DNA of 64,000 bases from the NCBI GenBank assembly GCA_021801925.1, contig JAKABH010000001.1, positions 7,964-71,963 on the forward strand, in the 5' to 3' direction. The notes under the pieces are model-generated. The model made no database searches, was not told the DNA's origin, and worked only from the letters and a program-made list of their open reading frames with translations. The position numbers were made by a program, and so were the translations under genes. Position 1 is the first letter of the stretch; each line of letters begins with the position of its first letter. The stretch comes from Thermoplasmata archaeon (GTDB lineage Archaea; Thermoplasmatota; Thermoplasmata; Lutacidiplasmatales; UBA184). This document shows positions 4,050 through 52,221 of the stretch, piece by piece.

Positions 4050-4424
4050 GTGGAGGCAGTGGAAGCAGGGGTCACAACCTTCCTGGTGTTCGTCGGGATC
4101 GCGGCCGTCTTCGGCGTTGGATCGATCGTCGCCAACCGGACCCTCGGCGCTCCCCCCCGCCGGTCGTACCTGCAGCGGACGACGTACGAATGCGGCGAGG
4201 AGGCGGAGGGGGAGGCGCAGATCGACTTCCCCACCCAGCACTACACGTTCGCGATCGTTTTCGTGGCGGTCGACGTCCTCGGCTTTCTGCTCGCCCTCTG
4301 GGGGCTCACCTTCCGGGGCGTCAACTCGAGCTGGTACCCGGTCTTCATCGCGCTGGCCTTCACCGCCCTAGCGGTCACGGGAATTTACTACGCGCTGAGC
4401 GGCGAAAAGCGGTGGGTCGTATGA
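4050..4424 (+). CDS. nuoA: NADH-quinone oxidoreductase subunit A
   Basis: 3-TM small subunit with NuoA/ND3 signature ([19 protein letters not shown]...[11 protein letters not shown]). Confidence 0.9.
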
Positions 4425-5044
4425 GCGCCCCGCCCGCCCCCCCGATGCCGCGAACCGCCGGATCGGCCGCCGAGGCGTATCGGCTCGAGGGGGAGCTCCC
4501 GATGGTCGAGCAGCCCGCGGTGCCGTTCGTCGAGATCGAGACGGTCCGGGCCCGCGAGTTCATCCCCGCCGCCAAGGAGGCGTTCGGCGCGCTGATCGCC
4601 GAGCAGGGGCAGGCGAAGCTGATCCGCCCGACGTTCAACTGGGCCGGCCGAAACTCGCTGTTCCCCCTCCACTGGGGCCTCGCCTGCTGCGCCATCGAGT
4701 TTGCCAGCGCCTTCTCCGCCCGATGGGACTCGGAGCGGTTCGGGATCGTCCCCCGTTCCTCCCCCCGGCAATGCGACCTCATGATCGTCAACGGCACCGT
4801 GACATGGAAGGTCGCCCACAAGCTCATCACCCTCTACGAACAGATGCCCGAACCGAAGTGGGTGATCGCGATGGGGAACTGCGCCACCGGCGGCGGGCCG
4901 TTCCGGACCGCCTACTCGGTCGTCCCCGGCGTCGACAAGCTCGTCCCCGTCGACGTCTACATCGCGGGCTGCCCGCCCCGGCCCGAGGCGATGATCGACG
5001 GGATCCTCCGACTGGAAGAACTGATCCGGGAGCGCCGGGAGTAG
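4421..5044 (+). CDS. nuoB: NADH-quinone oxidoreductase subunit B (N2 [4Fe-4S] cluster subunit)
   Basis: [13 protein letters not shown]...[11 protein letters not shown]...IAGCPPRPE. Start set at the ATG overlapping the nuoA stop (ATGA); the upstream Gly/Arg-rich part of the track ORF is rejected. Confidence 0.9.
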
Positions 5045-5073
5045 GGGCCGCGGCGCCGGCGCGGGGAGCGGAG

Positions 5074-5550
5074 ATGCAGTCGGACGACGTGGCCCGAACG
5101 GTCGCCGCCCAGATCGGCGAGCGCTTCCTCGGATTGGAGCCGTTTCCCCGGACCGCCGGGCGGCTCCGGTTCCGCTCGGAGGCGGCGCTGCCGCTCTTTC
5201 ACACCGTCAAGGAGCAGCTCGGCTTCCACCACCTGTCGATGGTCGGCGGGATCGACTGGGTGACGCATCGCGAGGTCTTCTACGTCGTCTGGTCGGACGA
5301 TCGCCGCCAGTACCTGCTCCTCTCCGCCGATCTTCCCGCCGCCGCACCGCACATCGAGTCGGCCGCCTCGGTCTGGCCGGCGGCGAACTGGCACGAGCGG
5401 GAGACGTGGGAGCTCGTCGACATCCAGTTCGACCACCACCCGGACCTGCGGCACCTCCTCCTCCCCGACGGCTACGAGGCCCACCCGCTGCTCCGCTCGT
5501 TCCAACTCCACGAGCCGGAGGAACTGGAGGTGAAGCAGCGCAGTGTCTGA
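5074..5550 (+). CDS. nuoC: NADH-quinone oxidoreductase subunit C (30-kDa subunit)
   Basis: NuoC/Nqo5 core (HLSMVGGIDW...FYVVWSDDRRQYLLL...ANWHERETWEL). Confidence 0.85.
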   Translation: MQSDDVARTVAAQIGERFLGLEPFPRTAGRLRFRSEAALPLFHTVKEQLGFHHLSMVGGIDWVTHREVFYVVWSDDRRQYLLLSADLPAAAPHIESAASVWPAANWHERETWELVDIQFDHHPDLRHLLLPDGYEAHPLLRSFQLHEPEELEVKQRSV

Positions 5551-6688
5551 GATGTGGATCAACATGGGGCCCCAGCACCCCATGACGCACGGCCTCTGGA
5601 ACCTCCGCGTGAAGATCGACGGGGAGCTCATCACCGACTGCGACCCCGAGATGGGCTATCTGCACCGCGGGATCGAGAAGATCAGCGAGGACCGGCACTA
5701 CAACGAGGTGATCACCCTCATGGACCGGACCTGCTACGTCGCGGGATTCGCGTGGGAGCACCTCTACGTCCTCGCCGCGGAGGAGGCGCTCCACATCCAG
5801 CCGCCCGAGCGGGCGGAGTACCTCCGCACCCTCTGCGAGGAGTTCCAGCGGATCGGCTCCCACCTCATGTGGTACGCCGCGTTCGTCCAGGACATCGGGC
5901 TGATGAGCCCGTTCCTCTACGGCATGCGCGACCGCGACCTGGTCCTCGACCTCTTCCAGAGCTACACCGGGGCGCGCATGACCTACGAGTACATGCGGGT
6001 CGGCGGGGTGCGCAACGACCTCCCGCCCGGCTTCACGGGCCACGCCCGCAAGGTCCTGGACTGGCTCAGCGACCGCTTCGTCGAATACGACCGGCTCTGC
6101 CTCGGCTCCGACATCTTCCGAAAGCGCTGCGACGGGCTGGGGGTCCTCTCCGCGGCCGACTGCGTCGCGACCGGCGTCACCGGGCCGATGCTCCGCTCCG
6201 CCGGCGTGAAGCGGGACGTGCGACGGGACCGGCCCTACGCGGCCTACCCGCAGCTCGACTTCGACGTCGCCGTCGCGGACGGGGCCGACGTGACCGCCCG
6301 CTACCTCGTGCGGATGGAGGAGATGCGGCAGTCGGTCCGCCTCCTCCGCCAGGTCCTGGACTGGCTCGACCACCACCCGGGCCCGGTCCTCGCGGATCGC
6401 CTCCCCCGGTGGCTCGGCGCCCCGTACGCCCCGGTCGGCAAGGAGGAGTACGTCCTCAAGCGGAACTACCCCAAGGGGGTCGGCTTCTCCTCCATCGAGG
6501 AGCCTCACGGGGAGGCGCAGGCCTACGTGGTGAACGAGGGATCCGAGCATCCGTACCGCGTGAAGTTCCGCTCCCCCGTCTTCGCGAACCTCTCCGCGAC
6601 GCGCCACTACCTGGTCGGCTACCGCGTCGCCGACATCCCGCCGATCATGGGCAGCGTCGACATCTGCGTCGGGGAGGTCGACCGGTAG
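5543..6688 (+). CDS. nuoD: NADH-quinone oxidoreductase subunit D (49-kDa subunit)
   Basis: MWINMGPQHP, GYLHRGIEK, and the C-terminal RSPVFANL. Start GTG 5543 or ATG 5552. Confidence 0.92.
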   Translation: MSEMWINMGPQHPMTHGLWNLRVKIDGELITDCDPEMGYLHRGIEKISEDRHYNEVITLMDRTCYVAGFAWEHLYVLAAEEALHIQPPERAEYLRTLCEEFQRIGSHLMWYAAFVQDIGLMSPFLYGMRDRDLVLDLFQSYTGARMTYEYMRVGGVRNDLPPGFTGHARKVLDWLSDRFVEYDRLCLGSDIFRKRCDGLGVLSAADCVATGVTGPMLRSAGVKRDVRRDRPYAAYPQLDFDVAVADGADVTARYLVRMEEMRQSVRLLRQVLDWLDHHPGPVLADRLPRWLGAPYAPVGKEEYVLKRNYPKGVGFSSIEEPHGEAQAYVVNEGSEHPYRVKFRSPVFANLSATRHYLVGYRVADIPPIMGSVDICVGEVDR

Positions 6689-6694
6689 GCGCCG

Positions 6695-7825
6695 ATGTCG
6701 AGCCTGTCGCTCTACGGGGTCTCCTTCGACCTCGTCCACCTCCTGCTCACGTCGATCGGCTCCGTCCTGCCGTACCCGCTCGACGCCTGGATCACCAACG
6801 GCACGCTCGTCCTCGTCCTCTCGGTCCTGGTCTTCGCCGCGATCCTCCTCGCCGCGAGCATGATCAACACCATCGTGCTGATCTGGTGGGAACGGAAGCT
6901 CCTCGGCCGCTTCATGGACCGGCGCGGCGCGATGCACGTGGGCTACGCGGGGCTCCTCCAGAACTTCGCGGACGGCCTCAAGCTGTTCCGCAAGCACACC
7001 TTCAAGCCGGCCGAGGCGGACACCCTCGGCTTCTTCTCGGGCCCCACCGCCTACATGGTCACGTCGATGATCCTCTTCGGCGTCCTGCCGATCTCCACGG
7101 GTTGGAACTCGGGGTCGCTCCCGCTGAGCCTGCTTCTTGCCCTCGCGATCTTCTCCTTCGCCCCGCTGTTCATCTTCGTCAGCGCGTGGTCGTCCAACAA
7201 CAAGTACTCCCTGATGGGCGGGATGCGCTCCGCCGCCCAGATGATCGCCTACGAGGTGCCGCTCCTGCTGGCGGTCGTCGCCGTCGTGATCGTCTCGGGG
7301 TCGTTCGACCTCACGACGATCGTCACGGAGCAGCAGAACTACTGGTTCTGGGGCCCGCTGTTCCTCGCGCTGGTCGTCTTCGTGGCGGGGATGCTCGCGG
7401 AGATGGAGCGGATCCCGTTCGACCTTCCCGAGGCGGAAGCCGAGCTCGTGGAGGGGTGGAACACCGAGTACGGCGGCATGCTGTTCGCCTTCTTCATGCT
7501 CGCCGACTACCTCCGCGGCCTGGTCGGGAGCTTCCTGGTCGTCCTCCTGTTCCTCGGGGGCTGGACGATGCCGAGCTGGGTGCCGGGGGCGCTCACCAAC
7601 TTCCCGCTCGCCGGGATCTTCTGGTTCTTGGTGAAGACCTACCTGGTCTTCGGGCTCTTCGTCTGGATCCGGGCGTCGCTGCCCCGGGTGCGGACCGACC
7701 AGTTGCTGCGCGTCGGCTGGAACCGGATGATCCCGCTGAGCCTGGCGGCGGTCTTCCTGGCCGCGGCGCTGGTGACCGTCAAGTGCCTCCCCGTCTTCGG
7801 CTGCCTGCCGTCCCCGGGGGTGTGA
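6695..7825 (+). CDS. nuoH: NADH-quinone oxidoreductase subunit H
   Basis: Polytopic membrane protein carrying NuoH/ND1 motifs (IWWERKLLGRFMDRRG, GLLQNFADGLKLF, EAEAELVEGWNTEYGGM). Confidence 0.92.
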   Translation: MSSLSLYGVSFDLVHLLLTSIGSVLPYPLDAWITNGTLVLVLSVLVFAAILLAASMINTIVLIWWERKLLGRFMDRRGAMHVGYAGLLQNFADGLKLFRKHTFKPAEADTLGFFSGPTAYMVTSMILFGVLPISTGWNSGSLPLSLLLALAIFSFAPLFIFVSAWSSNNKYSLMGGMRSAAQMIAYEVPLLLAVVAVVIVSGSFDLTTIVTEQQNYWFWGPLFLALVVFVAGMLAEMERIPFDLPEAEAELVEGWNTEYGGMLFAFFMLADYLRGLVGSFLVVLLFLGGWTMPSWVPGALTNFPLAGIFWFLVKTYLVFGLFVWIRASLPRVRTDQLLRVGWNRMIPLSLAAVFLAAALVTVKCLPVFGCLPSPGV

Positions 7826-7835
7826 GAGCCGACCG

Positions 7836-8615
7836 ATGACCGAACCGCTCACCGCGACCGAGAAGACGTCCGACAACCCGATCCTGTGGGTCGCGAAGCC
7901 GATGGTGACGGCCGCCCGCCAGTTCGCCCGGAGCCTGCTCCACCCGTCGACGGTCGTCTATCCGTTCGAGCGGCTCGAGGACCCCAAGTTCCGGACCGAG
8001 GTCGGGATCGAGTCCGGCAAGCCGATCGGGGTCGGGCCGATCTGGGACAACTACCGGGGGGTCCACGCGCTCAACATCGACACGTGCATCAGCTGCAACC
8101 TCTGCGCGTTCTCCTGCCCCGACCTGTGCATCGACATGGTGACGGTCCCGGGCGGCGATCCGAAGCATCCGAAGAAGTGCCCCCAGATCGACTACGGGAA
8201 GTGCAGCTACTGCGGCTTCTGCTCGGACGCCTGCCCCGAGGGATGCCTGTCGATGACGACCCGCTACGAGCTCTCCGTCCACTCGCGCCGGGAGATGGTC
8301 TTCCCGCCGGAGAAGCTGTTCGGGATCTACCAGCAGAAGCTCCCGATGAACCCGATCCGCGTCGAGCGGCCGGCGAACGAGGACCGCATCGTCCTCGAGC
8401 CGCCGCTGTGCATCGGATGCAACGCCTGTTCGCGGGACTGCCCGACGAACTGCATCACGATGATGGAGATCCCGAAGCCGGAAGCGAAACCCGGCGAGAA
8501 GCTGCCGAAGCGCATCTGGAAGGAGCCGGTGATCAACGACTCCGATTGCGTCCGGTGCGGCACGTGCATCAGCGTCTGCCCGAAGGAGTGTCTGTTCTGG
8601 GGGAGTCGGAAGTGA
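7836..8615 (+). CDS. nuoI: NADH-quinone oxidoreductase subunit I, extended form with four CxxCxxCxxxCP motifs (predicted 4 x [4Fe-4S])
   Basis: CISCNLCAFSCP, CSYCGFCSDACP, CIGCNACSRDCP, CVRCGTCISVCP; 259 aa versus ~170 aa for a canonical NuoI. Confidence 0.85.
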   Translation: MTEPLTATEKTSDNPILWVAKPMVTAARQFARSLLHPSTVVYPFERLEDPKFRTEVGIESGKPIGVGPIWDNYRGVHALNIDTCISCNLCAFSCPDLCIDMVTVPGGDPKHPKKCPQIDYGKCSYCGFCSDACPEGCLSMTTRYELSVHSRREMVFPPEKLFGIYQQKLPMNPIRVERPANEDRIVLEPPLCIGCNACSRDCPTNCITMMEIPKPEAKPGEKLPKRIWKEPVINDSDCVRCGTCISVCPKECLFWGSRK

Positions 8616-9100
8616 ACCTCGGGGAACTCGCGTTCCTCGCGCTCGCCGCCGTCGCCGTCGCGACGGCGCTCGCGGCGCTGCTCGTCCGCGAGCTCGTCCA
8701 CACGATCCTCTGGATCTCGGTCTTCTTTGTCGACCTCTCGGCGATCTACTTCCTCCTCGCCGCGCCGTTCCTGGGCGTCCTGCAGCTCGGCGTCTACGCC
8801 GGCGCCGTCACCGTCCTGCTCCTCTTCGGCATCATGGTGACGCGGAAGCGGATCTTCTCCCGGGAGGCCGCCGCCGGCCTCGGCCCGGTCCCGCTCGCCC
8901 TCGCGGCGGTGCTGGTCATCTTCCTCGTCTCCGCCGTCGGCCAACTCCCCGCGGGAACGACCCCCGTGACCGGCTACGACCCGTCGGCGCTCTCCGCGGC
9001 GCTGTTCGACACCTACGGCCCCTACCTGCTCCTCCTCGGGCTCGTCATGCTCGGCGGCGTCGCCGGGGCGATCTACCTCGTCCGGGAGGGCCGCGAGTGA
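8612..9100 (+). CDS. nuoJ: NADH-quinone oxidoreductase subunit J
   Basis: GTG start overlapping the nuoI stop; NuoJ-type membrane protein (LVHTILWISVFF...LGVLQLGVYAGAVTVLLLFGIMV). Confidence 0.8.
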   Translation: MNLGELAFLALAAVAVATALAALLVRELVHTILWISVFFVDLSAIYFLLAAPFLGVLQLGVYAGAVTVLLLFGIMVTRKRIFSREAAAGLGPVPLALAAVLVIFLVSAVGQLPAGTTPVTGYDPSALSAALFDTYGPYLLLLGLVMLGGVAGAIYLVREGRE

Positions 9101-9414
9101 CGACCCTTCCGGAGAGCGGCTTCCTGCTCCTCTCGGGGCTGCTGCTCGGGGTCGGGGTCTTCGGCCTGCTCACGCGCCGCAACTTCATCCTGGTCCTCAT
9201 CGCCCTCGAGATCGCGATGAACGCCACGATCCTCAACTTCGTCTACTTCGCGGCGTTCGCCCCGCACGCGGCCGGGCTCTCCGGCCAGGCGATCGCCGTC
9301 GTGCTGATCGGCTTCGCGGCGACCGAGGTCGCCGTCGGGCTCGCGATCGTGCTCGGCCTCAACCGCCTCAAGGGAACGATCGACGTCGCCCAGGGAAACC
9401 TCCTCAAGGAGTAG
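9097..9414 (+). CDS. nuoK: NADH-quinone oxidoreductase subunit K
   Basis: 105-aa 3-TM subunit (LIALEIAMNATILNFV...TEVAVGLAIVLGL). Confidence 0.9.
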   Translation: MTTLPESGFLLLSGLLLGVGVFGLLTRRNFILVLIALEIAMNATILNFVYFAAFAPHAAGLSGQAIAVVLIGFAATEVAVGLAIVLGLNRLKGTIDVAQGNLLKE

Positions 9415-9424
9415 GCACCGACCG

Positions 9425-11422
9425 ATGGACGCATTCCTCCTCCTCGACCAGTGGGCGTTCCTGATCCCGCTCCTCATGGTCGTCTCGTTCGCCCTCGTCG
9501 GCCTCTTCGGCACCCGCCTCCGCGCGCTGGAGTGGGGCGGGTGGGCCGCCGTCGGGATCGGGGGGATCGCCATGGTCCTCGGCGTCGGCATCGCCATCGG
9601 GGAGATGCTGCACCCCGGGACGTACGTGAACGCCCAGTACACCTGGCTGCACCTCGCCGGGACGCCGGGCCCGTTCCCGGAGGGGATCTCGCTCGTTGCC
9701 GGCACCCTGGTCGACCCGCTCTCGGCGCTGATGCTCCTGGTCGTCACGGTCGTGGGGTTCCTGGTCCTGCTCTACTCGATCGGCTACATGCACCATGATC
9801 GGGGCCTGCCCCGGTACTACGCCGAGCTGTCGCTGTTCCTCGCGGCGATGACCGGCCTCGTCCTGTCGAACAACCTCCTCGAGTTCTTCCTGTTCTGGGA
9901 ACTGGTCGGCGTCTGCTCGTACTTCCTCATCGGCTTCTACTACGAGAAGCCGAGCGCCGCCAGCGCGGCGAAGGAGGCGTTCCTCGTCACCCGCATCGGC
10001 GACGTGCTGTTCCTGCTCGGGATCTTCATCTACTTCTTCCACTTCGCGACGACCGGCCCGTCCGGCGGATGGGCCGCGAACGGCTTCGTCTTCGCCCACG
10101 GCACCTCGCCGTTCCTCCCGACCGGCTCGGTCGGCAGCTCGACGCTCCTCACGATCGCCGGCCTCATGATCCTGGGCGGCGCCGCCGGGAAGAGCGCCCA
10201 GTTCCCCCTCCACGTCTGGCTGCCGGACGCAATGGAGGGCCCGACGACCGTCTCCGCGCTGATCCACGCGGCGACGATGGTCGCGGCGGGCGTCTACCTG
10301 CTCGCGGTCACGAGCGTCTTCATCGGCTTCACCGCGACCGACCAGCTCGCGATCGTGGCGGTCGGCGGGTTCACGACCTTCTTCGCGGCGACGATGGCGG
10401 TCGTCCACCCGGACATCAAGCGGGTGATCGCCTACTCCACGATCAGCCAGCTCGGCTACATGGTGATGGCCGTCGGCGCCGGCTTCGCGATGGTCGGCCT
10501 CTTCCACCTCTTCACCCACGCCTTCTTCAAGGCGCTCCTGTTCCTCGCCGCCGGCTCGGTGATCCACGCCCTCGGCACGCAGGACCTGTTCAAGATGGGC
10601 GGGCTGCGCAAGCCGATGCGCGTCACGGGCACCGCCTTCGCCATCGGCGGCCTCGCCCTCGCCGGGATCCCGCCGTTCGCCGGGTTCTGGTCGAAGGACG
10701 ACATTTTGGGTTCGATGTACGGCGAGCTCGGGAGCCACCCGCTCTACTGGCCGTTCTGGATCCTGGCGCTCCTCGCCGTCTTCCTGACCGCCTACTACAT
10801 CTTCCGGGCCTGGTTCCTGGCGTTCGGCGGGAACGGTCCGCGCGACCCGACGCTCCCGCCGGCCCACGAGGGGTCGTGGGTGATGCAGGTCCCGCTCGTG
10901 ATCCTCTCGGGGATGGCGGTGTTCGGGGGCCTGTTGATCTTCGTCCCGGGGTTCCAGGGCCTGCTCCTGTACGGCGCCGGGGCCTCGGGGATCCCTCCGG
11001 TCTACGGGCCGACCGACCTCGCGCTCTCGGGGATCAGCGTGACGCTGGGCGCCGCGGGGATCGGGGTCGCCTACTGGCTGTGGGGGAACGGGCGGATCTT
11101 CGTCCTCCCCGAATCGAGCCCGCTCCAGCCGGTCCGGCGCCTGCTGCTGAACCGCTACTACCTGAAGGCCGCCTACGACTGGGTCGGGGCCCGGGCGGTC
11201 TACGGGATCGCCCGCGGGGCGGACTTCGTCGACCGGTACGTGATCGACGGCACCGTCCACGGCTTCGAGCGCGCCTTCGGCGCGGCGAGCGACCGGCTCC
11301 GGCGGGGCCAGACCGGCGTCGTCTCCGACTACGCCGCCTACGTCATCGCGGGGCTCCTCGGGGTCTTCGTCCTCCTCCTGCTGGTCGCGCCGTACCTGCT
11401 CGCCCACCTGGGAGGGACGTAG
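9425..11422 (+). CDS. nuoL: NADH-quinone oxidoreductase subunit L (antiporter-like)
   Basis: 665 aa with Mrp/NuoL signatures (FWELVGVCSYFLIGFYYEKPSA, HAATMVAAGVYLL, WSKDDILGS). Confidence 0.92.
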   Translation: MDAFLLLDQWAFLIPLLMVVSFALVGLFGTRLRALEWGGWAAVGIGGIAMVLGVGIAIGEMLHPGTYVNAQYTWLHLAGTPGPFPEGISLVAGTLVDPLSALMLLVVTVVGFLVLLYSIGYMHHDRGLPRYYAELSLFLAAMTGLVLSNNLLEFFLFWELVGVCSYFLIGFYYEKPSAASAAKEAFLVTRIGDVLFLLGIFIYFFHFATTGPSGGWAANGFVFAHGTSPFLPTGSVGSSTLLTIAGLMILGGAAGKSAQFPLHVWLPDAMEGPTTVSALIHAATMVAAGVYLLAVTSVFIGFTATDQLAIVAVGGFTTFFAATMAVVHPDIKRVIAYSTISQLGYMVMAVGAGFAMVGLFHLFTHAFFKALLFLAAGSVIHALGTQDLFKMGGLRKPMRVTGTAFAIGGLALAGIPPFAGFWSKDDILGSMYGELGSHPLYWPFWILALLAVFLTAYYIFRAWFLAFGGNGPRDPTLPPAHEGSWVMQVPLVILSGMAVFGGLLIFVPGFQGLLLYGAGASGIPPVYGPTDLALSGISVTLGAAGIGVAYWLWGNGRIFVLPESSPLQPVRRLLLNRYYLKAAYDWVGARAVYGIARGADFVDRYVIDGTVHGFERAFGAASDRLRRGQTGVVSDYAAYVIAGLLGVFVLLLLVAPYLLAHLGGT

Positions 11423-12895
11423 GTGTTCCCGATCCTCTCCGCGGTGCTCGCGACGCTGCTCGTCGGCACCGTGCTCACGTTCCTCTCGGGGAAGTCGGCC
11501 CGCTGGGTCGCGCTCGCGACGTCGTTCGTCTTCCTCGCGGAGGTCGCCTACCTGCTGCTCCAGTTCCCCGGCTGGGCCGGGTTCGCGGGCGGCGTCCCCC
11601 AGTTCGCCGACGGGGAGTCGTATGCGTGGATCCACCTCGGCTGGCTGCAAGTGAACTACACGCTCGGGATCGACGGGATCTCGCTCGTCCTCCTGGTCCT
11701 CACGGCGATCCTCCAGCTCGCCACGGTCGTCTACTCCTGGGGCGAGACGAAGAAGCCCGCGGCGTGGTTCGGGCTGCTCCTCCTGACCTGCCTCGGCTGC
11801 GTCGGGGTCTTCGTCGCGCTGGACGTCCTCCTCTTCTTCCTCTTCTGGGAGGCGGTCCTCGTCCCGATGTTCTTCATCATCGGCTACTGGGGCGGCCCCC
11901 GCCGGCGGTACGCCGCGATCAAGTTCTTCGTCTACACCCACGTCGCGTCGATCGTCATGCTCGTGGGGCTGCTCGCCCTCGTCTTCTACTCCCACGCGAC
12001 GAGCTTCGACTACGCGAGCGTCTACGCCGCCGCCCCGTCGCTCTCCGTCGTCACGCAGGCGTTCCTGTTCCTGTCGCTCTTCTTCGGCTTCGGCGTCAAA
12101 TTCCCGATCGTCCCGTTCCACACCTGGCTCCCCGACGCCCACGTCGAGGCCCCGACCGGCGGCTCCGTCCTGCTCGCGGGGCTCCTGCTCAAGCTCGGGG
12201 GCTACGGGCTGATCCGGTGGGCGGTGTTCGTCCTGCCGAACGGCTTCCACGAGGTGCAGCCGGTCCTCTTCGTCGTCGCGTTCGCCTCGATCGCCTGGGG
12301 ATCGGTCGTCTCGCTGGCCCAGCGGGACCTCAAGCGGATGGTCGCCTTCTCCTCGATCAACCACATGGGGATCGTGCTGCTGGCGATCGCCGTCGGCTCG
12401 TCGCTCGGTCTCCTGGCGGCGGTCCTCCTCATGTTCGCCCACGGGATCGTGAGCGCGCTGTTGTTCATGTCGTCGGGCAGCGTGCACCACACGTTCGGCA
12501 CCCGCGACATCGCCTCGGTCGGCGGGATCACCCCCCGCACCCCGGTGCTCGCGACGATGATCATGATCGGCTCGCTCGCGTCGCTCGGCCTCCCGTGGCT
12601 CATCAGCTTCCCCGCCGAATTCACGGCGCTGCTCGCCACCTGGGACCGGCTCGCCTACTGGGTCCTGCTGCCGCTCGGGATCCTCGTCGTCACCGCCGCC
12701 TTCTACATCTGGATGATGCAACGGATGCTGTTCGGCCCCGAGAAGGGGATCCCCGAGTCGGCGCACGACCTGCCGGCCTACGAGACCGTCGGGATGGGGA
12801 TCCTCGCCGCCGCGGCGATCGTCTTCGGCGTGCTGCCGTTCCTCCTCGTGAACCTGATCACCGCCTCGCCGATCCGCGTCTTCCCGGGGGTGTGA
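11423..12895 (+). CDS. nuoM: NADH-quinone oxidoreductase subunit M
   Basis: GTG start; NuoM motifs (LLFFLFWEAVLVPMFFIIGYWGG, FPIVPFHTWLPDAHVEAPT). Confidence 0.9.
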   Translation: MFPILSAVLATLLVGTVLTFLSGKSARWVALATSFVFLAEVAYLLLQFPGWAGFAGGVPQFADGESYAWIHLGWLQVNYTLGIDGISLVLLVLTAILQLATVVYSWGETKKPAAWFGLLLLTCLGCVGVFVALDVLLFFLFWEAVLVPMFFIIGYWGGPRRRYAAIKFFVYTHVASIVMLVGLLALVFYSHATSFDYASVYAAAPSLSVVTQAFLFLSLFFGFGVKFPIVPFHTWLPDAHVEAPTGGSVLLAGLLLKLGGYGLIRWAVFVLPNGFHEVQPVLFVVAFASIAWGSVVSLAQRDLKRMVAFSSINHMGIVLLAIAVGSSLGLLAAVLLMFAHGIVSALLFMSSGSVHHTFGTRDIASVGGITPRTPVLATMIMIGSLASLGLPWLISFPAEFTALLATWDRLAYWVLLPLGILVVTAAFYIWMMQRMLFGPEKGIPESAHDLPAYETVGMGILAAAAIVFGVLPFLLVNLITASPIRVFPGV

Positions 12896-12899
12896 CGGG

Positions 12900-14483
12900 G
12901 TGGTGGCGTTCTCGTCGTTCGTCGGCCCGTTCGTCCCCGAGCTGCTGCTGCTCGGCGGCATGCTCCTCGTCCTGCTGCTGGACGTCCTCGGCGTCCGCCG
13001 CAACGAGACGCTCGCGACGGTCGCGCTCACCGCCCTCGCGCTCGCCTTCCTCTCGATCCTCGGCGACCTCGGCTTCGCCCCGCTCGGCGTCCTCGCGACG
13101 GTCGGCCCGGGCGCCCTGAACGTCGCCCCGGCGGCCGGCGCGGCGCCGCTCTACCACCTGACGTCGTTCGGCCTCATCTTCCAGGCGATCTTCCTGGTCG
13201 CCGCGCTGCTGGTCGTCCTCGCCTCCTCGAGCCGCCCGAGCGGCGAGCGCGGCGCGCCGATCTTCTACGGGCTCCTGCTGCTCGCGACGGTCGGGATGCT
13301 GCTCGTCGCCGTCGCCTCCGACCTCATCTTCCTCCTCCTCGCGGTCGAGGTCGTGGGCGTCCCGTCGTACCTGCTGGTCGCCTACCGGCGGGGGGAGGCG
13401 CGGTCGATGGAGGCGGCGATGAAGTTCTTCATCGTCGGCGCCCTCTCCACCGTGCTGTCGTTCTACGGCGCCTCGCTCCTCTTCGGCGCCTACGGATCGA
13501 CGAACCTGTTCGTGATCCACGCGGCGGCCGCCAGCGTCGGGACGCCGGTCCTGGTCCTCGTGGGCTACGGGTTCCTCCTCGCCGGCCTCGCCTTCAAGGT
13601 CACCCTCGTGCCGTTCCACGCCTGGGCCGTCGACGTCTACGACGGGGCCCCGACCGACGTGACGGCGTTCCTCGCCGGCGGGACGAAGAAGATCGGGCTG
13701 TTCGCCTTCTTCCTGGTCTTCCTCGGACCGGTCCTCCTCGTCCACCCCGCGACCGCCGGGGCGTCCCCGTTCGGCGGCGGGCCGCTCGACCTCGGCCCGA
13801 CCCTCTCGATCGCCCTCGGCGTCATCGCCGTGCTGACGATGACCGTCGGCAACCTGCTCGCGCTCCTCCAGAAGGAGATGAAGCGGATGCTGGCCTATTC
13901 GTCGATCAGCCAGGCCGGCTACATGCTGATCGGCGTGACGATCGGCACCGCCCCGGCGCTCACCGGGGCGACCCTCCAGATCCTCGCGCATGTCCTGATG
14001 AAGGGCGGGGCGTTCCTCGTCGTCGCCGGTGTCGCGGGCCTCGGGATCGGTCCGCTGATCGACGACTGGAAGGGGCTCGGCGTCCGCCGCCCGCTGCTCG
14101 GCGCCGCCTTCGCCCTGATGCTCCTCTCCCTCGCCGGCGTGCCGCTCACCATCGGCTTCGTCTCGAAGTTCGTCCTCTTCTCGTCGGCCGTCCAGGCCCA
14201 GGGATGGTTCATCTGGCTCGCCGTCGCGGGGCTCCTCAACAGCGCCCTCTCGGTCTTCTACTACGCCCGCGTCCTGAAGGTGATGTACTTCGATCGGACG
14301 GATCCGATCGCGGCGATCGAGGCCCCGCCCGCGAGCGGCTTGGGCGCGGGCGGCTTGGGCTACGGCCGGGCGGCGGCGATCGGCCTCGCCGCCGTCCTGA
14401 TCGTGGGGATCGGCCTCTACCCGCAGCCGATCCTCGGCGCGATCCAGTCGGCCGCCCAGCACTTCCTCCTCACCGGAGTGTAG
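12900..14483 (+). CDS. nuoN: NADH-quinone oxidoreductase subunit N
   Basis: NuoN motifs (LLLAVEVVGVPSYLLVAYRR, KVTLVPFHAWAVDVYDGAPT, AYSSISQAGYMLIG). Confidence 0.9.
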   Translation: MVAFSSFVGPFVPELLLLGGMLLVLLLDVLGVRRNETLATVALTALALAFLSILGDLGFAPLGVLATVGPGALNVAPAAGAAPLYHLTSFGLIFQAIFLVAALLVVLASSSRPSGERGAPIFYGLLLLATVGMLLVAVASDLIFLLLAVEVVGVPSYLLVAYRRGEARSMEAAMKFFIVGALSTVLSFYGASLLFGAYGSTNLFVIHAAAASVGTPVLVLVGYGFLLAGLAFKVTLVPFHAWAVDVYDGAPTDVTAFLAGGTKKIGLFAFFLVFLGPVLLVHPATAGASPFGGGPLDLGPTLSIALGVIAVLTMTVGNLLALLQKEMKRMLAYSSISQAGYMLIGVTIGTAPALTGATLQILAHVLMKGGAFLVVAGVAGLGIGPLIDDWKGLGVRRPLLGAAFALMLLSLAGVPLTIGFVSKFVLFSSAVQAQGWFIWLAVAGLLNSALSVFYYARVLKVMYFDRTDPIAAIEAPPASGLGAGGLGYGRAAAIGLAAVLIVGIGLYPQPILGAIQSAAQHFLLTGV

Positions 14484-14486
14484 CGC

Positions 14487-15587
14487 ATGGAGCGCGTCGA
14501 CGTGATCGTCGTCGGCGCCGGGCCGGCCGGATCGTCCGCCGCCCGGGCGGCGGCGGAAGGGGGCGCCCGCACCCTGCTCCTCGACCATCGGACCGAGCTC
14601 GGGCACCCGGTGCAGTGCGGGGAGTTCGTCCCGACCCCCGCGGAGCTCGCCGACCTGTTCGACTGCCCCGACCTCATCCAACGGGCGTTCGATCTCCCGC
14701 CGGAGACGATCCTGCGGTCGACCCGCTACATGTCGTGCGTCTCCCCCTACGGGCACCGGTTCCGCTTTCCCCTCGCGGGGGCGACCGTCTCGCGCCGGTC
14801 GTTCGACAAGGCGCTCGCCTACCGGGCCGAGGGGGCGGGGGCGGAACTGCGGTTCCCCCTCGGGGTCACCCGGGTCCAGGGGTCGACCGTCCGGACCGCG
14901 GACGGGGAGGAGATCGAGGGGCGGGTCGTCATCGGCGCCGACGGGCCGCTGTCGATCGTCGCCCGTTCGGTCGGCCAGCCCCGCCCGCGGACCCTCTACC
15001 GGATGATCACCGCCACCGTCGACGGGGGACTGGACGACGAGATCGACCTCTTCTTCGGCCGGGACGCCCCCGGCGGATACGCCTGGGCGTTCCCGCGGGC
15101 CCACGACCTGAACGTGGGGCTCGGGGTGACGCGGATCCCCCGCGGCCGCTCGCTCGGCGGGCTGCTCGACCGGTTCCTCGCCCACCGGGGGTTCGGCCCC
15201 GCCCGGGAGCCGACCCGCTGGTGGGTCCCGATCGGGACCCCGCCCGACTCCCTCGTGCACGGGCCGATCCTCCTCGCGGGCGATGCGGCGCAGCTCGTCA
15301 TGGCGACGAACGGCGGCGGCATCCCGACGGCGATGCTCAGCGGCTGGCTCGCCGGGGAGGCGGCGGCGCGGACGATCCGGGACGGGACGCCGCTCGCCGC
15401 CTACGACACGGCGTGGCGCTCGGCGCTCTACGGACCCCTCGCCCGGGCGGCGGCGATCCAGGCGTGGAGCGACCCGTATACCGTCTTCGACCCCGTCCTG
15501 GCCCTCGGAATGCGCTATATCGGTGCGCGCGGTCTCGACGCCATGATGCGGCTGCGCTGGCCCGGGCGCCGGGGGGTCGAGGCATGA
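14487..15587 (+). CDS. FAD-dependent geranylgeranyl reductase family protein (digeranylgeranylglycerophospholipid/polyprenyl reductase)
   Basis: GxGxxG FAD motif (VIVVGAGPAGSSAARAAAEGG) and GGR-family core (HPVQCGEFVP, GADGPLSIVARSVG, GYAWAFPR, LLAGDAAQLV). Starts 4 nt after the nuoN stop. Confidence 0.85.
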   Translation: MERVDVIVVGAGPAGSSAARAAAEGGARTLLLDHRTELGHPVQCGEFVPTPAELADLFDCPDLIQRAFDLPPETILRSTRYMSCVSPYGHRFRFPLAGATVSRRSFDKALAYRAEGAGAELRFPLGVTRVQGSTVRTADGEEIEGRVVIGADGPLSIVARSVGQPRPRTLYRMITATVDGGLDDEIDLFFGRDAPGGYAWAFPRAHDLNVGLGVTRIPRGRSLGGLLDRFLAHRGFGPAREPTRWWVPIGTPPDSLVHGPILLAGDAAQLVMATNGGGIPTAMLSGWLAGEAAARTIRDGTPLAAYDTAWRSALYGPLARAAAIQAWSDPYTVFDPVLALGMRYIGARGLDAMMRLRWPGRRGVEA

Positions 15588-16633
15588 GCGCCGCCCGGAC
15601 CCCGGTCGATGCCTCCCTCGAGACGATCGTCCAGCAGACGCTGCGCAACGCCGCCGCCGACTCCCTCGTCGAGCTGGCCCCGACGCTGGTGCGCGATCTC
15701 ACCGAGATCGACTGGCGCGTCGCCGAGGTCCTGGGCTCGACCTACGCGCAGCTCACCGAGGCGGCGCGCTACGCCTGCTCGACCGGCGGCAAGCGGGTCC
15801 GCCCGCTCCTGATGGCCGTCGCCCACCGGGCGCTCGGGTCGGAGACGACGCAACCGATCCACTCCCTCGCGGCGGCGTTCCAGCTGATCCACACGGCGAC
15901 GCTCGTCCACGACGACGTGATCGACCACGCCGAGACCCGACGGGGCCGTCCGTCGATGCCGCGCGCCTTCGGCATCCCGCTCGCGATCGTCTCGGGCGAC
16001 TACCTCTTCGTCCGCGCCTTCGAGCTCGCCGCGGAGTACCCCCGCTCGATCATCATGCGGTGCGGGGAGGCGTGCGCCGACCTGGTCGAGGGGGAGGTCC
16101 TCCAGGAGGCGTCCCGGTTCGATCTCTCCAGCGGCCGCGACCACTACTTCCGGGTGATCGAGCGGAAGACGGCGGCGATCATCGCCGCGGCGCTCACGTC
16201 GGTCGCGGAGATCGCCGCCGCGGGCCCCGCGGTCGTCGACGCCCTCCAGGGATACGGGCGGGCCCTGGGGCTCGCCTTCCAGATCCGGGACGATCTCCTC
16301 GACGTCTACGGCGACCCCGACCTCCTGGGAAAGCCGCTCTTCGGGGACCTCCGGGAGGGGAACCCGACCCTCCTCTCCCTCGAGACGTATGCCCGGCTCG
16401 ACCCCCGCCACCAGGCGGAGTTCGAGCGGCTGTTCCAGCTCCGCCGCAAGCGGGCGAAGCACCTCCTGCGGCTCCGCGACTTGACCCAGATGACGGACGC
16501 GTCCGACGTCGTCGCCCGCGAGGCGACCGACTGGGTCGACCGCGGGATCCACTGCCTCGAGGCGCTGCCGAACGGGCCGTACCGCCGCCTATTGGAACAG
16601 CTCGCCCGCGGCGCGGCCGCGCGGCGGTTCTAG
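15584..16633 (+). CDS. idsA: Polyprenyl synthetase (GGPP/longer-chain prenyl diphosphate synthase, IdsA-like)
   Basis: FARM and SARM aspartate motifs (LIHTATLVHDDVIDHAETRRG and FQIRDDLLDVYGD). ATGA overlap with the GGR stop. Confidence 0.88.
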   Translation: MSAARTPVDASLETIVQQTLRNAAADSLVELAPTLVRDLTEIDWRVAEVLGSTYAQLTEAARYACSTGGKRVRPLLMAVAHRALGSETTQPIHSLAAAFQLIHTATLVHDDVIDHAETRRGRPSMPRAFGIPLAIVSGDYLFVRAFELAAEYPRSIIMRCGEACADLVEGEVLQEASRFDLSSGRDHYFRVIERKTAAIIAAALTSVAEIAAAGPAVVDALQGYGRALGLAFQIRDDLLDVYGDPDLLGKPLFGDLREGNPTLLSLETYARLDPRHQAEFERLFQLRRKRAKHLLRLRDLTQMTDASDVVAREATDWVDRGIHCLEALPNGPYRRLLEQLARGAAARRF

Positions 16634-46702: not shown

Positions 46703-47338
46703 TTGCGGCGGGCGTTCGGGAAGCCGCACTTCCACGTCATCGGGCTGGACGACGGCGCGTTCCGCCGCGGGGACCGATGGGCGCCGGTCGCCGCCGTCCT
46801 GCTCGCCGTGCCGGCGCGCGTCGAGGCGATCCGGATCGGGCGGGTGCGCGTCGACGGAACGGACGCCGCGGAGGTCCTCGCGGCGCTCGTGAGCCGCCTC
46901 CCCGGCCGGGCGAGCGCGCGGGCGGTCCTGCTCGACGGGGCGGTCGTCGGCGGCTTCAACGTCGTCGACCTCGACAGTCTTCACCGCGCGCTCGGCGTTC
47001 CCGTCGTCGCCGTGACGGCCCGGGCGCCCGATTTCGGCGCGATCCGGACGGCGCTCGAGCGCGGGTTCCCCCGCGACGCGGAGCGGCGGTACCGGCTTCT
47101 TTCCGCGCACCGGCTCACCGCCGTTCCCGGCGCCGCCTCCCCCGTGCGGATCGCGGTCGTCGGCTGCCTCCGTGCGGAGGCGGCGGCGCTCGTGCGCCGC
47201 ACGATCGTCGAGGGCCACACCCCCGAGCCGATCCGCCTCGCCCACCTCGTCGCCTCGGCGGCGGCGCCCCCCTTGCCCTCGACACGAACCGTTAAGGAGC
47301 CCGTCCGCCGTCGTCCCCGGCGCGGGCCTGTAGCTTAG
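46703..47338 (+). CDS. DUF99-family protein (UPF0215, endonuclease-V-like fold)
   Basis: FHVIGLDDGAF...RIGRVRVDGTDAAEVLAALVSRL...LLDGAVVGGFNVVDLDSLHRALGVPVVAV. TTG start inferred; the 3' end overlaps the tRNA-Arg 5' end. Confidence 0.6.
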   Translation: MRRAFGKPHFHVIGLDDGAFRRGDRWAPVAAVLLAVPARVEAIRIGRVRVDGTDAAEVLAALVSRLPGRASARAVLLDGAVVGGFNVVDLDSLHRALGVPVVAVTARAPDFGAIRTALERGFPRDAERRYRLLSAHRLTAVPGAASPVRIAVVGCLRAEAAALVRRTIVEGHTPEPIRLAHLVASAAAPPLPSTRTVKEPVRRRPRRGPVA

Positions 47339-47430
47339 CTCGGACGAAGCACTGGCCTTCTAAGCCAGGGAACTCGGGTTCAAAGGCCGGGGCGGCCCCC
47401 CCGCCCCGGCAGAGACTCCCGACAGGCCCG
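47324..47430 (+). tRNA. tRNA-Arg (anticodon TCT) with a putative 32-nt intron in the T-loop (between positions 59 and 60)
   Basis: Acceptor GGGCCTG/CAGGCCC (7 bp), D-stem GCTT/AAGC, anticodon stem CTGGC/GCCAG with loop CTTCTAA, T-stem TCGGG/CCCGA, T-loop TTCAAA[...]T. The insertion 47385-47416 (GGCCGGGGCGGCCCCCCCGCCCCGGCAGAGAC) contains a 10-bp GC hairpin. No encoded CCA. Confidence 0.6.
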
Positions 47431-47434
47431 TCCG

Positions 47435-48499
47435 CTACCCCCGGTCGACCTCGGCGGCGCAGCGGTCGCAGAGGAGGCCGTGCGGGTCGGGGCCGAGCGG
47501 GGTGCCGCAGAGCGGGCAGGTCGCCCGCGCGTCGGCCGCGGCGATCAGCTCCTGCACGCTCGTCCGCAGCGCGGGGTTCGCGTTCGCGGCCGAAGACTCG
47601 GGCCGGGGCGATTCCCCCGGCGCGGCGGGGAGGAGCGCGTCCAGGCGCGCCCGGTAGACGCCGGTCCGGCGGTCGAAGGCGACGACCCCGCGCGCCGCGA
47701 GCCCCTGCAGCGCGGAGTCGATGAGCTCGCGGACGCCCCCGAAGACGTGGGCGACCTCGATCGCCGTGAGGCCGTTCGATTCCACGATCGTCGGGAGGAG
47801 GCGGGCGGCGAGCAGCGGGACCTCCCCGCGGCCGGTCCACTGGTCGACGTACCACCCGACGCGCGCGGGGCGGACGACCCGGCGGGCCGGCGCCAATCGA
47901 CCGGCCCGGGGATCGGCAAGGAGGAGCGACCGGACGAGATCGAGTTCGTAGATCACCCGCTCCTCCGGATAGTAGGCGAGCACCGCCACCCCGAACGGCA
48001 GCAGGCCCCGCTGCCGGCACGCCGCCACCCCCTCGGGGAGGCTCCGCAGCAGCGTCGGGAGGGTGACCCGCGGCCCGCCCGCCGCCGCCCGGTCCTCCTC
48101 GGCTCGGGAGCGGGGCAGGTAATGCTCCCGGAGGAGGAACCGGGCGATCGTGCGCGCCGGCGGGGCCCCCGCGTCGGAGACGATCTCGGCGCTCCCGTCC
48201 TCCGCGAAGACGGCGGCGGCGAGCGGCCGCAGGAACGCCCACGCCGGCCCGGCCTCGGGCGGGTCGTCGAGCCGCAGCTCGAGCGGGCCGGCCGGCGGGG
48301 CCTCGCCGCGGAGCAGATCGTAGAAGGAGCCGACCTGCCGGCCCCCCGCGCGGAGATGGAACGAGCCGATCGGCGTCCGCCGCCGGGCCAAGAATTCCTC
48401 GTAGGCCCGGCCGAGCGCCCGTTCGGAGTAGACGTCGTGGCGGTCGCCGGCCCGTTCGCGGGCGAGCGGCTGCAGATCAGCGAGCGCGACGGCGGCCAT
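47435..48499 (-). CDS. Hypothetical protein with winged-helix-like region and C-terminal C4 zinc ribbon
   Basis: Ends CPLCGTPLGPDPHGLLCDRCAAEVDRG. The central TIVESNGLTAIEVAHVFGGVRELIDSALQGLAARGVV resembles a wHTH. Start at MAAVALADL, 23 nt inside the GT4 3' end; the track's longer ORF is rejected. Confidence 0.45.
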   Translation of the reverse strand: MAAVALADLQPLARERAGDRHDVYSERALGRAYEEFLARRRTPIGSFHLRAGGRQVGSFYDLLRGEAPPAGPLELRLDDPPEAGPAWAFLRPLAAAVFAEDGSAEIVSDAGAPPARTIARFLLREHYLPRSRAEEDRAAAGGPRVTLPTLLRSLPEGVAACRQRGLLPFGVAVLAYYPEERVIYELDLVRSLLLADPRAGRLAPARRVVRPARVGWYVDQWTGRGEVPLLAARLLPTIVESNGLTAIEVAHVFGGVRELIDSALQGLAARGVVAFDRRTGVYRARLDALLPAAPGESPRPESSAANANPALRTSVQELIAAADARATCPLCGTPLGPDPHGLLCDRCAAEVDRG

Positions 48500-49773: not shown

Positions 49774-50553
49774 TCAGAGGACCGACTGGAACGCCCGCTC
49801 GAGCCGGCTCGCGTCCTTGGCGTCGAGCGCGCGGGGGTCGAACGAGACGATCAGCGCCGAGCCGGTGTCGCGGACCTGGCCGACGAGCCAATGGACGAAC
49901 CGCTGGACGACGTCGAGGGAATGTTCGGTCGCGAGGTACTCGAGGGCGTCTACGTAGACGAGCGCGCCGCCGGCCGCCTCCGTCGGCGCCCGCAGCTGCC
50001 CGCCGATCTCCCCCGGCGTCGGGGGACCGCCCCCGCCGCCCGGTTCGCCGACCGCGATCTCGACCCGCCGCTCGGGCCCGAGGCCCTCCACCGCCGGGGG
50101 ATGGAGGGAAACGAAGGCGACCCGCGGGAAGGCGGCGGCGCCGTCGCGCAGGAGCTCGAGCGACCGGGCCGGCCGTTCCTCGCGCACGAGCACGGTGCGG
50201 CCCGGCCCGATCTTCGGGGCGGGGGGCGGCGCCGGGACGCCGAGCGGGGCCACCCACGGTCGCGTGGCGGTCGGGGGCCGGAAGAGGCTTCCCCACGACG
50301 GGCGGCTCGGGGGGGCGATCATCGCCCGCCGCTTCGCTTCGACCTCCTCGGAGAGGCGCGCGAGCCGGCCCTCGATCAGCATCCGGAGCTCGGCGGCCGT
50401 GTGGCCCCGCGAGGCGTGGCCGAGGACCTCCCGGAGGGCGCTGCGGACCCCTTCCTCGTAGCCGGCGGCGTACGTCCGGGCATACTCCTGGTCGGGGGCG
50501 TCGTCCTCCGCCGGCCGGCGCTCGGCGCCGTCCCGGCGCGGCCCGTCGTTCAC
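49774..50553 (-). CDS. DUF835 domain protein
   Basis: C-terminal DUF835-like block (ALVYVDALEYLATEHSLDVVQRFVHWLVGQVRDTGSALIVSFDPRALD). GTG start overlapping the DUF35 stop (GTGA); the upstream Arg/Gly-rich part of the 402-aa ORF is rejected as shadow sequence. Family call is from memory. Confidence 0.5.
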   Translation of the reverse strand: MNDGPRRDGAERRPAEDDAPDQEYARTYAAGYEEGVRSALREVLGHASRGHTAAELRMLIEGRLARLSEEVEAKRRAMIAPPSRPSWGSLFRPPTATRPWVAPLGVPAPPPAPKIGPGRTVLVREERPARSLELLRDGAAAFPRVAFVSLHPPAVEGLGPERRVEIAVGEPGGGGGPPTPGEIGGQLRAPTEAAGGALVYVDALEYLATEHSLDVVQRFVHWLVGQVRDTGSALIVSFDPRALDAKDASRLERAFQSVL

Positions 50554-51041: not shown

Positions 51042-51049
51042 GGCCCCTC

Positions 51050-52219: not shown

Positions 52220-52221
52220 CG

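Follow-up and report, generated by a model that had tools for sequence, protein, structure and literature searches.

The way in which electrons enter the complex-I-type enzymes of archaea and bacteria that have no NADH head is a long-standing question. For the cyanobacterial enzyme the answer had to await cryo-EM of the ferredoxin-bound complex, and the ferredoxin site of NDH-1 is built from the extra small subunits NdhS, NdhV and NdhO, not from extra clusters. Cyanobacterial and chloroplast NDH-1 have a headless core of 11 homologous subunits without NuoEFG, with ferredoxin as the established donor (entry 6l7o, Fd-NDH-1L). The Fpo-like complex of the Methanomassiliicoccales (fpoABCDHIJKLMN, with neither FpoF nor FpoO) is a second headless system. 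In the description of its genes, fpoI was listed without comment, FpoF and FpoO were noted as missing, and a parallel was drawn with the ferredoxin-using enzyme of Methanosaeta (PMC4153887). A 2020 review treats this complex as headless and ferredoxin-dependent, with HdrD as the assumed partner (PMC7374477), and a study cited there, Kroninger et al. 2019, reports according to its title that the Methanomassiliicoccus enzyme oxidises reduced ferredoxin. Another archaeal group, the Lutacidiplasmatales, has been described as possessing complexes III and IV and as leading an aerobic or facultative life; its complex I is never discussed (PMC9287336).

The operon described here, found in a 64-kb stretch of archaeal DNA (the window, meaning the whole stretch at its full length), has the same gene order as the Methanomassiliicoccales complex. 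Subunit I of the latter has the same long four-motif form (245-253 aa), the same polyprenyl synthase and geranylgeranyl-reductase-like genes are located downstream, and both hosts belong to Thermoplasmatota. The two systems differ in that the window host is a member of a high-GC lineage from soil and acid habitats, described as aerobic or facultative (PMC9287336), whereas the other hosts are methanogens; the acceptor of the window complex is presumably a quinone feeding complexes III and IV, in contrast to HdrD/heterodisulfide in the Methanomassiliicoccales. Like NDH-1, the window complex has a headless 11-subunit core, but NDH-1 keeps a two-cluster NdhI, unlike the window NuoI. Canonical NuoI/Nqo9/NDUFS8 (TYKY) and Methanosarcina FpoI share with the window NuoI the core profile, the fold, the N-terminal helix, and the position between nuoH and nuoJ; they consist of 130-220 residues and bind two clusters, whereas the window NuoI adds ~100 residues and two cluster sites. 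Such a doubled subunit I is mentioned neither in the evolutionary surveys of complex I (PMC3144371, PMC4758237) nor, for FpoI, in the Methanomassiliicoccales papers (PMC4153887, PMC7374477). We found no published description of a four-cluster subunit I; an earlier remark in the literature is possible.

The nuo operon and the long form of NuoI

A preliminary description of this DNA had reported an 11-subunit nuoABCDHIJKLMN operon in which a NuoI of ~259 aa contains two complete 2x[4Fe-4S] domains, with no NuoEFG or FpoF-like module in the window. All of this stands: the translation, the four motifs and the Pfam Fer4 matches agree on NuoI, Pfam confirms all ten neighbours, and the lack of an input module is borne out by the six-frame scan, tblastn and Pfam, the flanks of 83 related loci being likewise devoid of one. 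The 11 genes extend over positions 4050-14483 of the forward strand, with short overlaps typical of co-translation, and are directly followed by two genes of isoprenoid type:

4050..4424 (+), nuoA; Pfam Oxidored_q4, E=1e-14
4421..5044 (+), nuoB, subunit of the N2 cluster; Pfam Oxidored_q6, E=9e-29
5074..5550 (+), nuoC; Pfam Complex1_30kDa, E=3e-29
5543..6688 (+), nuoD; Pfam Complex1_49kDa, E=3e-83
6695..7825 (+), nuoH; Pfam NADHdh, E=1e-99
7836..8615 (+), nuoI, long form with four [4Fe-4S] motifs; motif scan, Pfam, NCBIfam
8612..9100 (+), nuoJ, its start overlapping the nuoI stop; Pfam Oxidored_q3, E=1e-20
9097..9414 (+), nuoK; Pfam Oxidored_q2, E=1e-19
9425..11422 (+), nuoL; Pfam Proton_antipo_N and Proton_antipo_M
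11423..12895 (+), nuoM; Pfam Proton_antipo_M, E=2e-69
12900..14483 (+), nuoN; Pfam Proton_antipo_M, E=2e-59
14487..15587 (+), geranylgeranyl-reductase-like flavoprotein, directly downstream of the operon; Pfam GGR_cat/FAD_binding_3
15584..16633 (+), polyprenyl synthase; Pfam polyprenyl_synt, E=1e-62

The nuoI gene translates to 259 residues, from an ATG start to a TGA stop, the latter sharing bases with the GTG at which nuoJ begins (GTGA). The protein contains four complete CxxCxxCxxxCP motifs, and thus 16 cysteines (translation and six-frame scan), and Pfam recognises four Fer4 stretches that make up two dicluster domains. Its parts, in order along the chain, are:

7836..8039 (+), N-terminal region, residues 1-68; amphipathic helix at 15-35 (AF2 helix; the rest of the region is of low confidence)
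8040..8318 (+), canonical NuoI core, residues 69-161, motifs 1 and 2 (TIGR01971 match; Foldseek superposition)
8085-8120 (+), motif 1, C84-P95
8202-8237 (+), motif 2, C123-P134
8319..8402 (+), linker, residues 162-189, in which a helix gives way to a variable and mostly acidic segment (AF2 helix 158-167; pLDDT 54 at 171-180)
8403..8612 (+), extra C-terminal 2x[4Fe-4S] module, residues 190-259, motifs 3 and 4 (NCBIfam, shuffle test)
8409-8444 (+), motif 3, C192-P203
8547-8582 (+), motif 4, C238-P249

In the six frames of the 64-kb window these are the sole ferredoxin-type motifs in credible frames, the one further match being antisense to nuoM. Since the pattern is unique in credible frames of the window and is kept in 80/80 related genomes, it is real and not a product of chance. 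A public protein (P0001) is 99% identical to the window NuoI; PGAP names the long forms only as '4Fe-4S binding protein'.

The subfamily model of NuoI, TIGR01971, scores 118.2 bits on the window protein, against a cut-off of 113.05, and covers residues 69-161 only; the second, C-terminal module (residues ~190-259) is therefore the extra one. The species-level equivalog models of NuoI reach 52-95 bits, with cut-offs of 135-457, whereas the FpoI model NF040612 (80.2 bits, cut-off 180) and the FwdF model NF042909 (48.5 bits, cut-off 375) both remain below threshold. The protein is thus a NuoI by its profile score, by two motifs with the long insert between them, by the N-terminal helix, and by its position between nuoH and nuoJ, which recurs in the 83 related loci, but it departs from the family rule of exactly two [4Fe-4S] clusters per subunit in that its sequence contains four motifs. 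It does not belong with the Methanosarcina-type FpoI, as its score on that model is below the cut-off and FpoF and FpoO are both absent from the window. Motifs 1 and 2 of the core correspond to clusters N6a/N6b of complex I, and the ligand motifs predict that the subunit as a whole carries four occupied [4Fe-4S] clusters. In the N-terminal region, Pro37, Thr39, Tyr42, Pro43 and Glu45 are conserved across the long forms, whereas the linker, with a mean net charge of -5.5 across the family, is among the less conserved parts.

In the AF2 model of full-length NuoI, based on an alignment of 86 sequences (mean pLDDT 78.8, pTM 0.66), both modules are folded confidently (pLDDT 84-95) and part of the linker is weak; by segment, pLDDT in the extra module is 75-92. 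A model of residues 70-259 based on 137 sequences has a pLDDT of 84.5 and a pTM of 0.74. In Foldseek searches, the first module superimposes on chains of NuoI, NDUFS8 and NdhI at 2.6-3.5 Å over ~100 residues, and no solved chain matches both modules in a single geometry. Among solved structures there is no long NuoI; the nearest chain by sequence, 6u8y_N, is subunit N of the membrane-bound sulfane reductase of Pyrococcus.

Tandem 2x[4Fe-4S] modules like those of the window NuoI are also present in polyferredoxins and wire subunits (FwdF, MvhB, EhaP, as well as HycB, which accompanies HycF in formate hydrogenlyase), and the principle is the same, a cluster chain lengthened next to a NuoI homologue. 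The FwdF NCBIfam model and PDB chain 5t5i_F align across both modules of NuoI (residues 77-253). In those systems, however, the wire forms a polypeptide of its own or belongs to a far longer chain, whereas the added module of the window protein derives from NuoI itself, and the arrangement of the FwdF modules differs from that in the AF2 model, with Foldseek aligning FwdF to both modules over ~195 columns only at an rmsd of ~25 Å. A score below the cut-off, the presence of two modules only, and a geometry that cannot be superposed place the window protein outside the polyferredoxins of the FwdF/MvhB type.

Absence of a linked input head and the acceptor side

Outside nuoI, the six-frame scan of the 64-kb window detected no CxxCxxC motif in any genuine reading frame. 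Searches with NuoE, NuoF and NuoG of E. coli (tblastn) gave no match in the window or in the 83 related loci, whereas the NuoH and NuoI controls matched in 84/84 sequences. Pfam scans of 20 neighbouring gene products identified housekeeping genes of an ordinary kind and no member of the NuoE/F/G or FrhB/FpoF families, and FpoO is also absent from the window; the remaining genes of the window, mainly those of the ribosomal-protein cluster, were identified by eye alone. In the window and the 83 loci, 1.46 Mb in all, the four-motif NuoI is the only ferredoxin-type ORF, and in the 83 related loci, whose flanks amount to 1.4 Mb, no NuoE/F/G or FpoF-like gene lies within 10 kb of the operon. By its gene content, nuoABCDHIJKLMN without nuoEFG or fpoF in the window and in the flanks of the 83 loci, the complex is of the headless kind.

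In the ancestral (LCA) columns of Supplementary Data 8 of PMC9287336, the ancestor of the Lutacidiplasmatales is reconstructed without nuoE/F/G and with nuoC/D and korAB, the latter being a 2-oxoacid:ferredoxin oxidoreductase, and nuoG is scored 0 in every genome column covered, all of these being placed before those of the Lutacidiplasmatales. The KO calls of this reconstruction are imperfect, since nuoH and nuoI also score 0 there. The ancestral columns also score nuoI (K00338) as missing from all order-level ancestors, suggesting that the KEGG assignment overlooks the long form. Reconstructions of Thermoplasmatota metabolism can for this reason score complex I as incomplete.

The acceptor side of the complex looks like a quinone (or phenazine) site of the complex-I/Fpo type and not like that of a hydrogenase, judging from the tandem-cysteine N2 ligands of NuoB (LACCAIEF, together with GNCA and GCPP in the translation), from the His/Tyr pair of NuoD, and from the adjoining polyprenyl synthase gene. 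The histidine in GPQHPMTHG and the tyrosine in RTCY of NuoD, which contact the quinone in solved enzymes, are the equivalents of His38/Tyr87, according to the alignment with NdhH, and cyanobacterial NdhH is also the best solved homologue (6hum_H, E=1.9e-86). Only two vestigial cysteines remain in NuoD at the former positions of the NiFe ligands, a trait described for Fpo and for 'ancestral' Nuo complexes (PMC4758237).

Distribution and origin of the extra module

When one genome per species was scanned, 119 genomes proved to encode a close relative of the window NuoI; 80 of them were retained, with 77-89% identity in the best-matching segment. The titles of 77 of these 80 read 'Thermoplasmata archaeon', the others being 'Candidatus Lutacidiplasmatales archaeon', 'Methanobacteriota archaeon' and 'bacterium'. 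Their sources are soil, peat and acid environments, and the AcS/SubAcS MAGs from the work on the Lutacidiplasmatales are among them. The window has a G+C content of ~72%, and it comes from an uncultured, high-GC soil archaeon of the Thermoplasmata that is close to Ca. Lutacidiplasmatales. Its remaining genes comprise a ribosomal-protein/SecY cluster, topoisomerase VI, an MMPL transporter, one tRNA-Arg, and an archaeal thiolase/HMG-CoA synthase/DUF35 trio.

All 80 retained relatives are 258-263 residues long and keep the four CP motifs and all 16 cysteines. Across the 81 sequences, the mean consensus fraction is 0.926 in the extra module and 0.933 in the canonical core, with 46/70 and 59/93 invariant positions, respectively; the N-terminus and the linker are looser. 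As the cysteines are kept in 80/80 relatives and the conservation equals that of the core, the extra module is not a decoration, and the alignments show it to be under strong purifying selection. Conserved basic residues of the extra module (Arg200, 98%; Arg226, 99%; Lys218/219, ~75%) are a possible docking patch, although this is a weak supporting detail, with the patch modest and the whole module net negative on average.

A wider search, in which HMMER was run exhaustively against 1.84 billion representatives before a profile search, retrieved long subunit-I proteins of 235-305 aa that cover the whole query at 27-45% identity. About 200 of the retrieved proteins or protein clusters contain the four motifs, and in sets of 14 to 86 long forms, which share 27-45% identity with the query, none of the 16 cysteines varies. 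All names attached to the long forms belong to Thermoplasmata, Thermoplasmatota, Methanomassiliicoccales, Ca. Methanoplasma, Methanomethylophilaceae, and unclassified Euryarchaeota/Methanobacteriota. On the evidence of these alignments, the four-motif subunit I is phylum-wide in Thermoplasmatota, including gut methanogens, and is not special to the window. Two distant members (L081 and L083) have the long subunit I in complete 11-gene operons and a third (P0085) in a nuoABCDHI block with subunit I as its last gene; none of these three loci has nuoEFG or fpoF beside it. In L081, a Methanomassiliicoccales MAG, the polyprenyl synthase and reductase genes follow fpoN, as in the window. Short subunit-I proteins also occur within the phylum (for example P0034, P0037 and P0040), and in P0034 and P0037 an unstructured Lys-rich tail is found where the second module would be.

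When the extra module alone is compared with 18,950 NCBIfam families, the best matches are models of NuoI (NF004546, 8e-14; TIGR01971, 1e-10), which points to duplication of NuoI's own module. Modules 1 and 2 align with a score of 122, compared with 53.5 +/- 11 for shuffles in which the cysteines were fixed (z = 6.2), and this alignment spans both motifs as well as the long insert between them. Moreover, E. coli NuoI matches each related locus twice in tblastn, the second match being the extra module. The similarity between the sequences thus identifies the extra module as a tandem internal duplicate of the cluster-binding module of NuoI.

Two other origins are excluded. Fusion with a foreign clostridial-type ferredoxin is contradicted by the isolated module, which best fits models of NuoI and shares the long inter-motif insert of that subunit, and an artefact of assembly or gene calling, with two ORFs fused, is contradicted by 80 independent genomes and ~200 protein clusters that agree in length and architecture.

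The mean identities of modules 1 and 2, within as well as between lineages, are all 31-39% and are dominated by the Cys and Pro ligands. In a crude neighbour-joining tree of the cores, the long forms are not monophyletic, with 18/86 short forms inside their MRCA, among them FpoI of Methanosarcinales, and the core of the window NuoI groups with archaeal FpoI of Methanosarcinales, ANME-2 and Methanoperedens. The history of the extra module probably includes losses, but with such identities and such a crude tree we claim no number of gains or losses.

Proposed electron entry through the extra module of subunit I

We lean, by little more than an even balance, toward the view that the duplicate module lengthens, by two clusters within the subunit itself, the wire through which electrons enter a ferredoxin:quinone oxidoreductase. 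The amphipathic N-terminal helix of NuoI would sit on NuoH, the two-cluster core module would hand electrons to N2 in NuoB, and the C-terminal duplicate would bind two further [4Fe-4S] clusters. Because the complex probably has no head that oxidises NADH or F420H2, the surface at which NuoI meets NuoG in canonical complex I would be left free, and it is this surface that the extra module would most likely occupy, serving as a built-in landing site for a soluble protein donor of low potential. Electrons would pass from the donor through the two extra clusters to N6a, N6b, N2, and then the quinone. The likely donor would be ferredoxin that has received its electrons from 2-oxoacid:ferredoxin oxidoreductases; its place on the extra module could be taken by a partner enzyme in other lineages. 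Ferredoxin is the obvious candidate since 2-oxoacid:ferredoxin oxidoreductases are reconstructed for the lineage, no N-module is linked to the operon, and the orthologous enzyme of the methanogens is reported to use it. The position of the extra clusters on the electron path, ferredoxin as the donor and a quinone as the acceptor are what we infer from these comparisons.

Ferredoxin is also regarded as the donor of other headless complexes, namely cyanobacterial NDH-1 and the Fpo of Methanothrix, whose subunit I has the normal two clusters; the extra domain is therefore not needed for that chemistry. The preliminary description had taken the domain as a sign of electron uptake from ferredoxin and had likened the complex to the archaeal Fpo-like enzymes. 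The likeness proved to be close, as the Methanomassiliicoccales complex, described as ferredoxin-dependent (PMC7374477, PMC4153887), has its genes in the same order and a subunit I doubled in the same way. The argument from the domain to the donor survived in part: it gains from the ferredoxin dependence described for the orthologous headless complex and loses from the headless complexes that do without such a domain. The contrary prospect, that the extra motifs are a common decoration in close NADH-dependent relatives, was not borne out by the searches.

One alternative is that the extra clusters are an adaptor to a partner redox enzyme encoded elsewhere and do not receive electrons from free ferredoxin. 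Precedents exist in HycB and CooF, which connect group-4 hydrogenases, through their subunit-I homologues, with formate or CO dehydrogenases. Both modules resemble consecutive modules of FwdF, an inter-enzyme wire, in sequence and local fold, and the partner could be HdrD in the Methanomassiliicoccales and a different dehydrogenase in the aerobic Lutacidiplasmatales. The conservation of the extra module in lifestyles as different as those of methanogens and aerobes agrees with such an adaptor, yet it is difficult to think of one partner that methanogens and aerobic heterotrophs would share, and no candidate gene is linked to the operon in the 83 loci. HdrD, in the model that includes it, is the acceptor, expected near the quinone-site end and not at subunit I. 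We therefore regard an adaptor of this type as unlikely.

Conserved clusters that are off the electron pathway do exist in complex I, N7 in NuoG being an example, and this counts against the extra module being part of a wire. The module could instead be a structural or protective cap over the NuoG-facing surface of NuoI, which would protect N6a against solvent or oxygen and lend stability to the arm, with its own clusters off the path like N7. In an 11-subunit enzyme that surface is exposed, as established structures of complex I indicate, and the Lys-rich tail that replaces the module in the close relatives P0034 and P0037 means that the module is dispensable to the complex. All eight ligand cysteines, both prolines of the CP motifs and several neighbouring residues are, however, invariant at an overall identity of 27-45%, which points to functional clusters, whereas a simple cap needs no two intact clusters; a capping role thus appears decidedly unlikely.

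To our knowledge, enzymes that contain FpoF or NuoEFG always use a two-cluster subunit I, which speaks against a conventional input module (FpoF for F420H2 or a NuoEFG-like one for NADH) encoded elsewhere in the genome, with the extra module as its interface. With nuoE/F/G scored 0 for the Lutacidiplasmatales ancestor in the ancestral columns of Supplementary Data 8 of PMC9287336, and with the same long FpoI in Methanomassiliicoccales genomes that have no fpoF (PMC4153887), this explanation is very improbable.

Returning to the entry wire, a subunit I with its own two-cluster extension, present from acid-soil aerobes to gut methanogens, offers a concrete and testable hypothesis for the entry site. 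A broader proposal, which we advance tentatively and with less than even confidence, is that the four-cluster subunit I may be the ancestral built-in electron-entry module of the complex-I-type enzymes of Thermoplasmatota, doing the job performed elsewhere by NuoEFG, FpoF or NdhS/V/O. If so, it would represent a fourth, previously unrecognised way of feeding the complex I core, and would settle the docking site of ferredoxin (or HdrD) on the much-debated Fpo-like complex of the Methanomassiliicoccales.

The Lys-rich tails of the short relatives are a further, weak supporting detail for ferredoxin as the donor. FpoI of Methanothrix is likewise said, after Welte and Deppenmeier in 2011, to have a Lys-rich tail.

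Subunit I in annotation and in related operons

The long NuoI carries in the NCBI pipeline only the label "4Fe-4S binding protein", and in the ancestral gene-content reconstruction of the Lutacidiplasmatales study (PMC9287336, Supplementary Data 8), K00338 (nuoI) is 0 in all order-level Thermoplasmatota ancestors, yet nuoC/D is 1. The variant therefore seems to escape standard annotation, with the consequence that complex I appears incomplete there.

Two short relatives of subunit I from Thermoplasmatota metagenomes, P0034 (176 aa) and P0037 (208 aa), have at their C-terminal end a Lys-rich tail, e.g., ...YKKAKMEKKFTTMSQGKVASKKE, in place of the second module. Their nearest relatives are the long forms P0024 and P0028. 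The tail may be another way to dock an acidic donor, or a remnant of loss.

In one distant Thermoplasmatota lineage, represented by the 143-kb contig of the long form P0085 (ENA ERZ27297570), the operon is split. Its order is nuoABCDH followed by a 302-aa long nuoI and then by unrelated genes, so nuoJKLMN must be elsewhere. NuoH (477 aa) and NuoC (215 aa) of this locus are both longer than their counterparts in the window.

The probable quinone site of NuoD

5543-6688: nuoD, with the quinone-binding His in GPQHPMTHG and the Tyr in RTCY

NuoD retains one cysteine adjoining the quinone-site Tyr (RTCY) and another in the C-terminal DICVGEVDR. Both are vestigial NiFe-ligand positions, 86 and 403 in Thermus numbering; vestigial cysteines at these positions are a trait of Fpo and of "ancestral" Nuo (PMC4758237). 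The closest solved homologue of this subunit is the cyanobacterial NdhH, and not any bacterial NuoD.

Isoprenoid genes downstream of the operon

14487-16633: geranylgeranyl-reductase-like flavoprotein and polyprenyl synthase, directly 3' of nuoN

The same flavoprotein/synthase pair, in swapped order compared to the window, is located 3' of fpoN in a Methanomassiliicoccales MAG (L081, 16621-18715). The gene link between the complex and the synthesis of isoprenoids (quinone side-chain or lipid) is conserved across very different lifestyles.

Other genes in the window

47324-47401: tRNA-Arg(TCT), adjoining the 354-aa ORF
47435-48499, minus strand: 354-aa ORF whose coding signal is strong
50550-53259, minus strand: tightly clustered archaeal trio made up of a DUF35-type zinc-ribbon/OB protein, thiolase, and HMG-CoA synthase
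59720-61648, minus strand: 642-aa protein with NHL/YNCE-type beta-propeller repeats

A Pfam search with the 354-aa ORF returned no family at E<=1e-5; its C-terminal region includes a CPLCG...CDRC pair that is zinc-ribbon-like. The thiolase/HMG-CoA synthase/DUF35-type trio is responsible for the initial reactions of mevalonate synthesis and thereby for the start of the mevalonate pathway. The 642-aa protein, with numerous N-x-S/T sequons and a membrane anchor at the C terminus, is probably a glycosylated surface protein.
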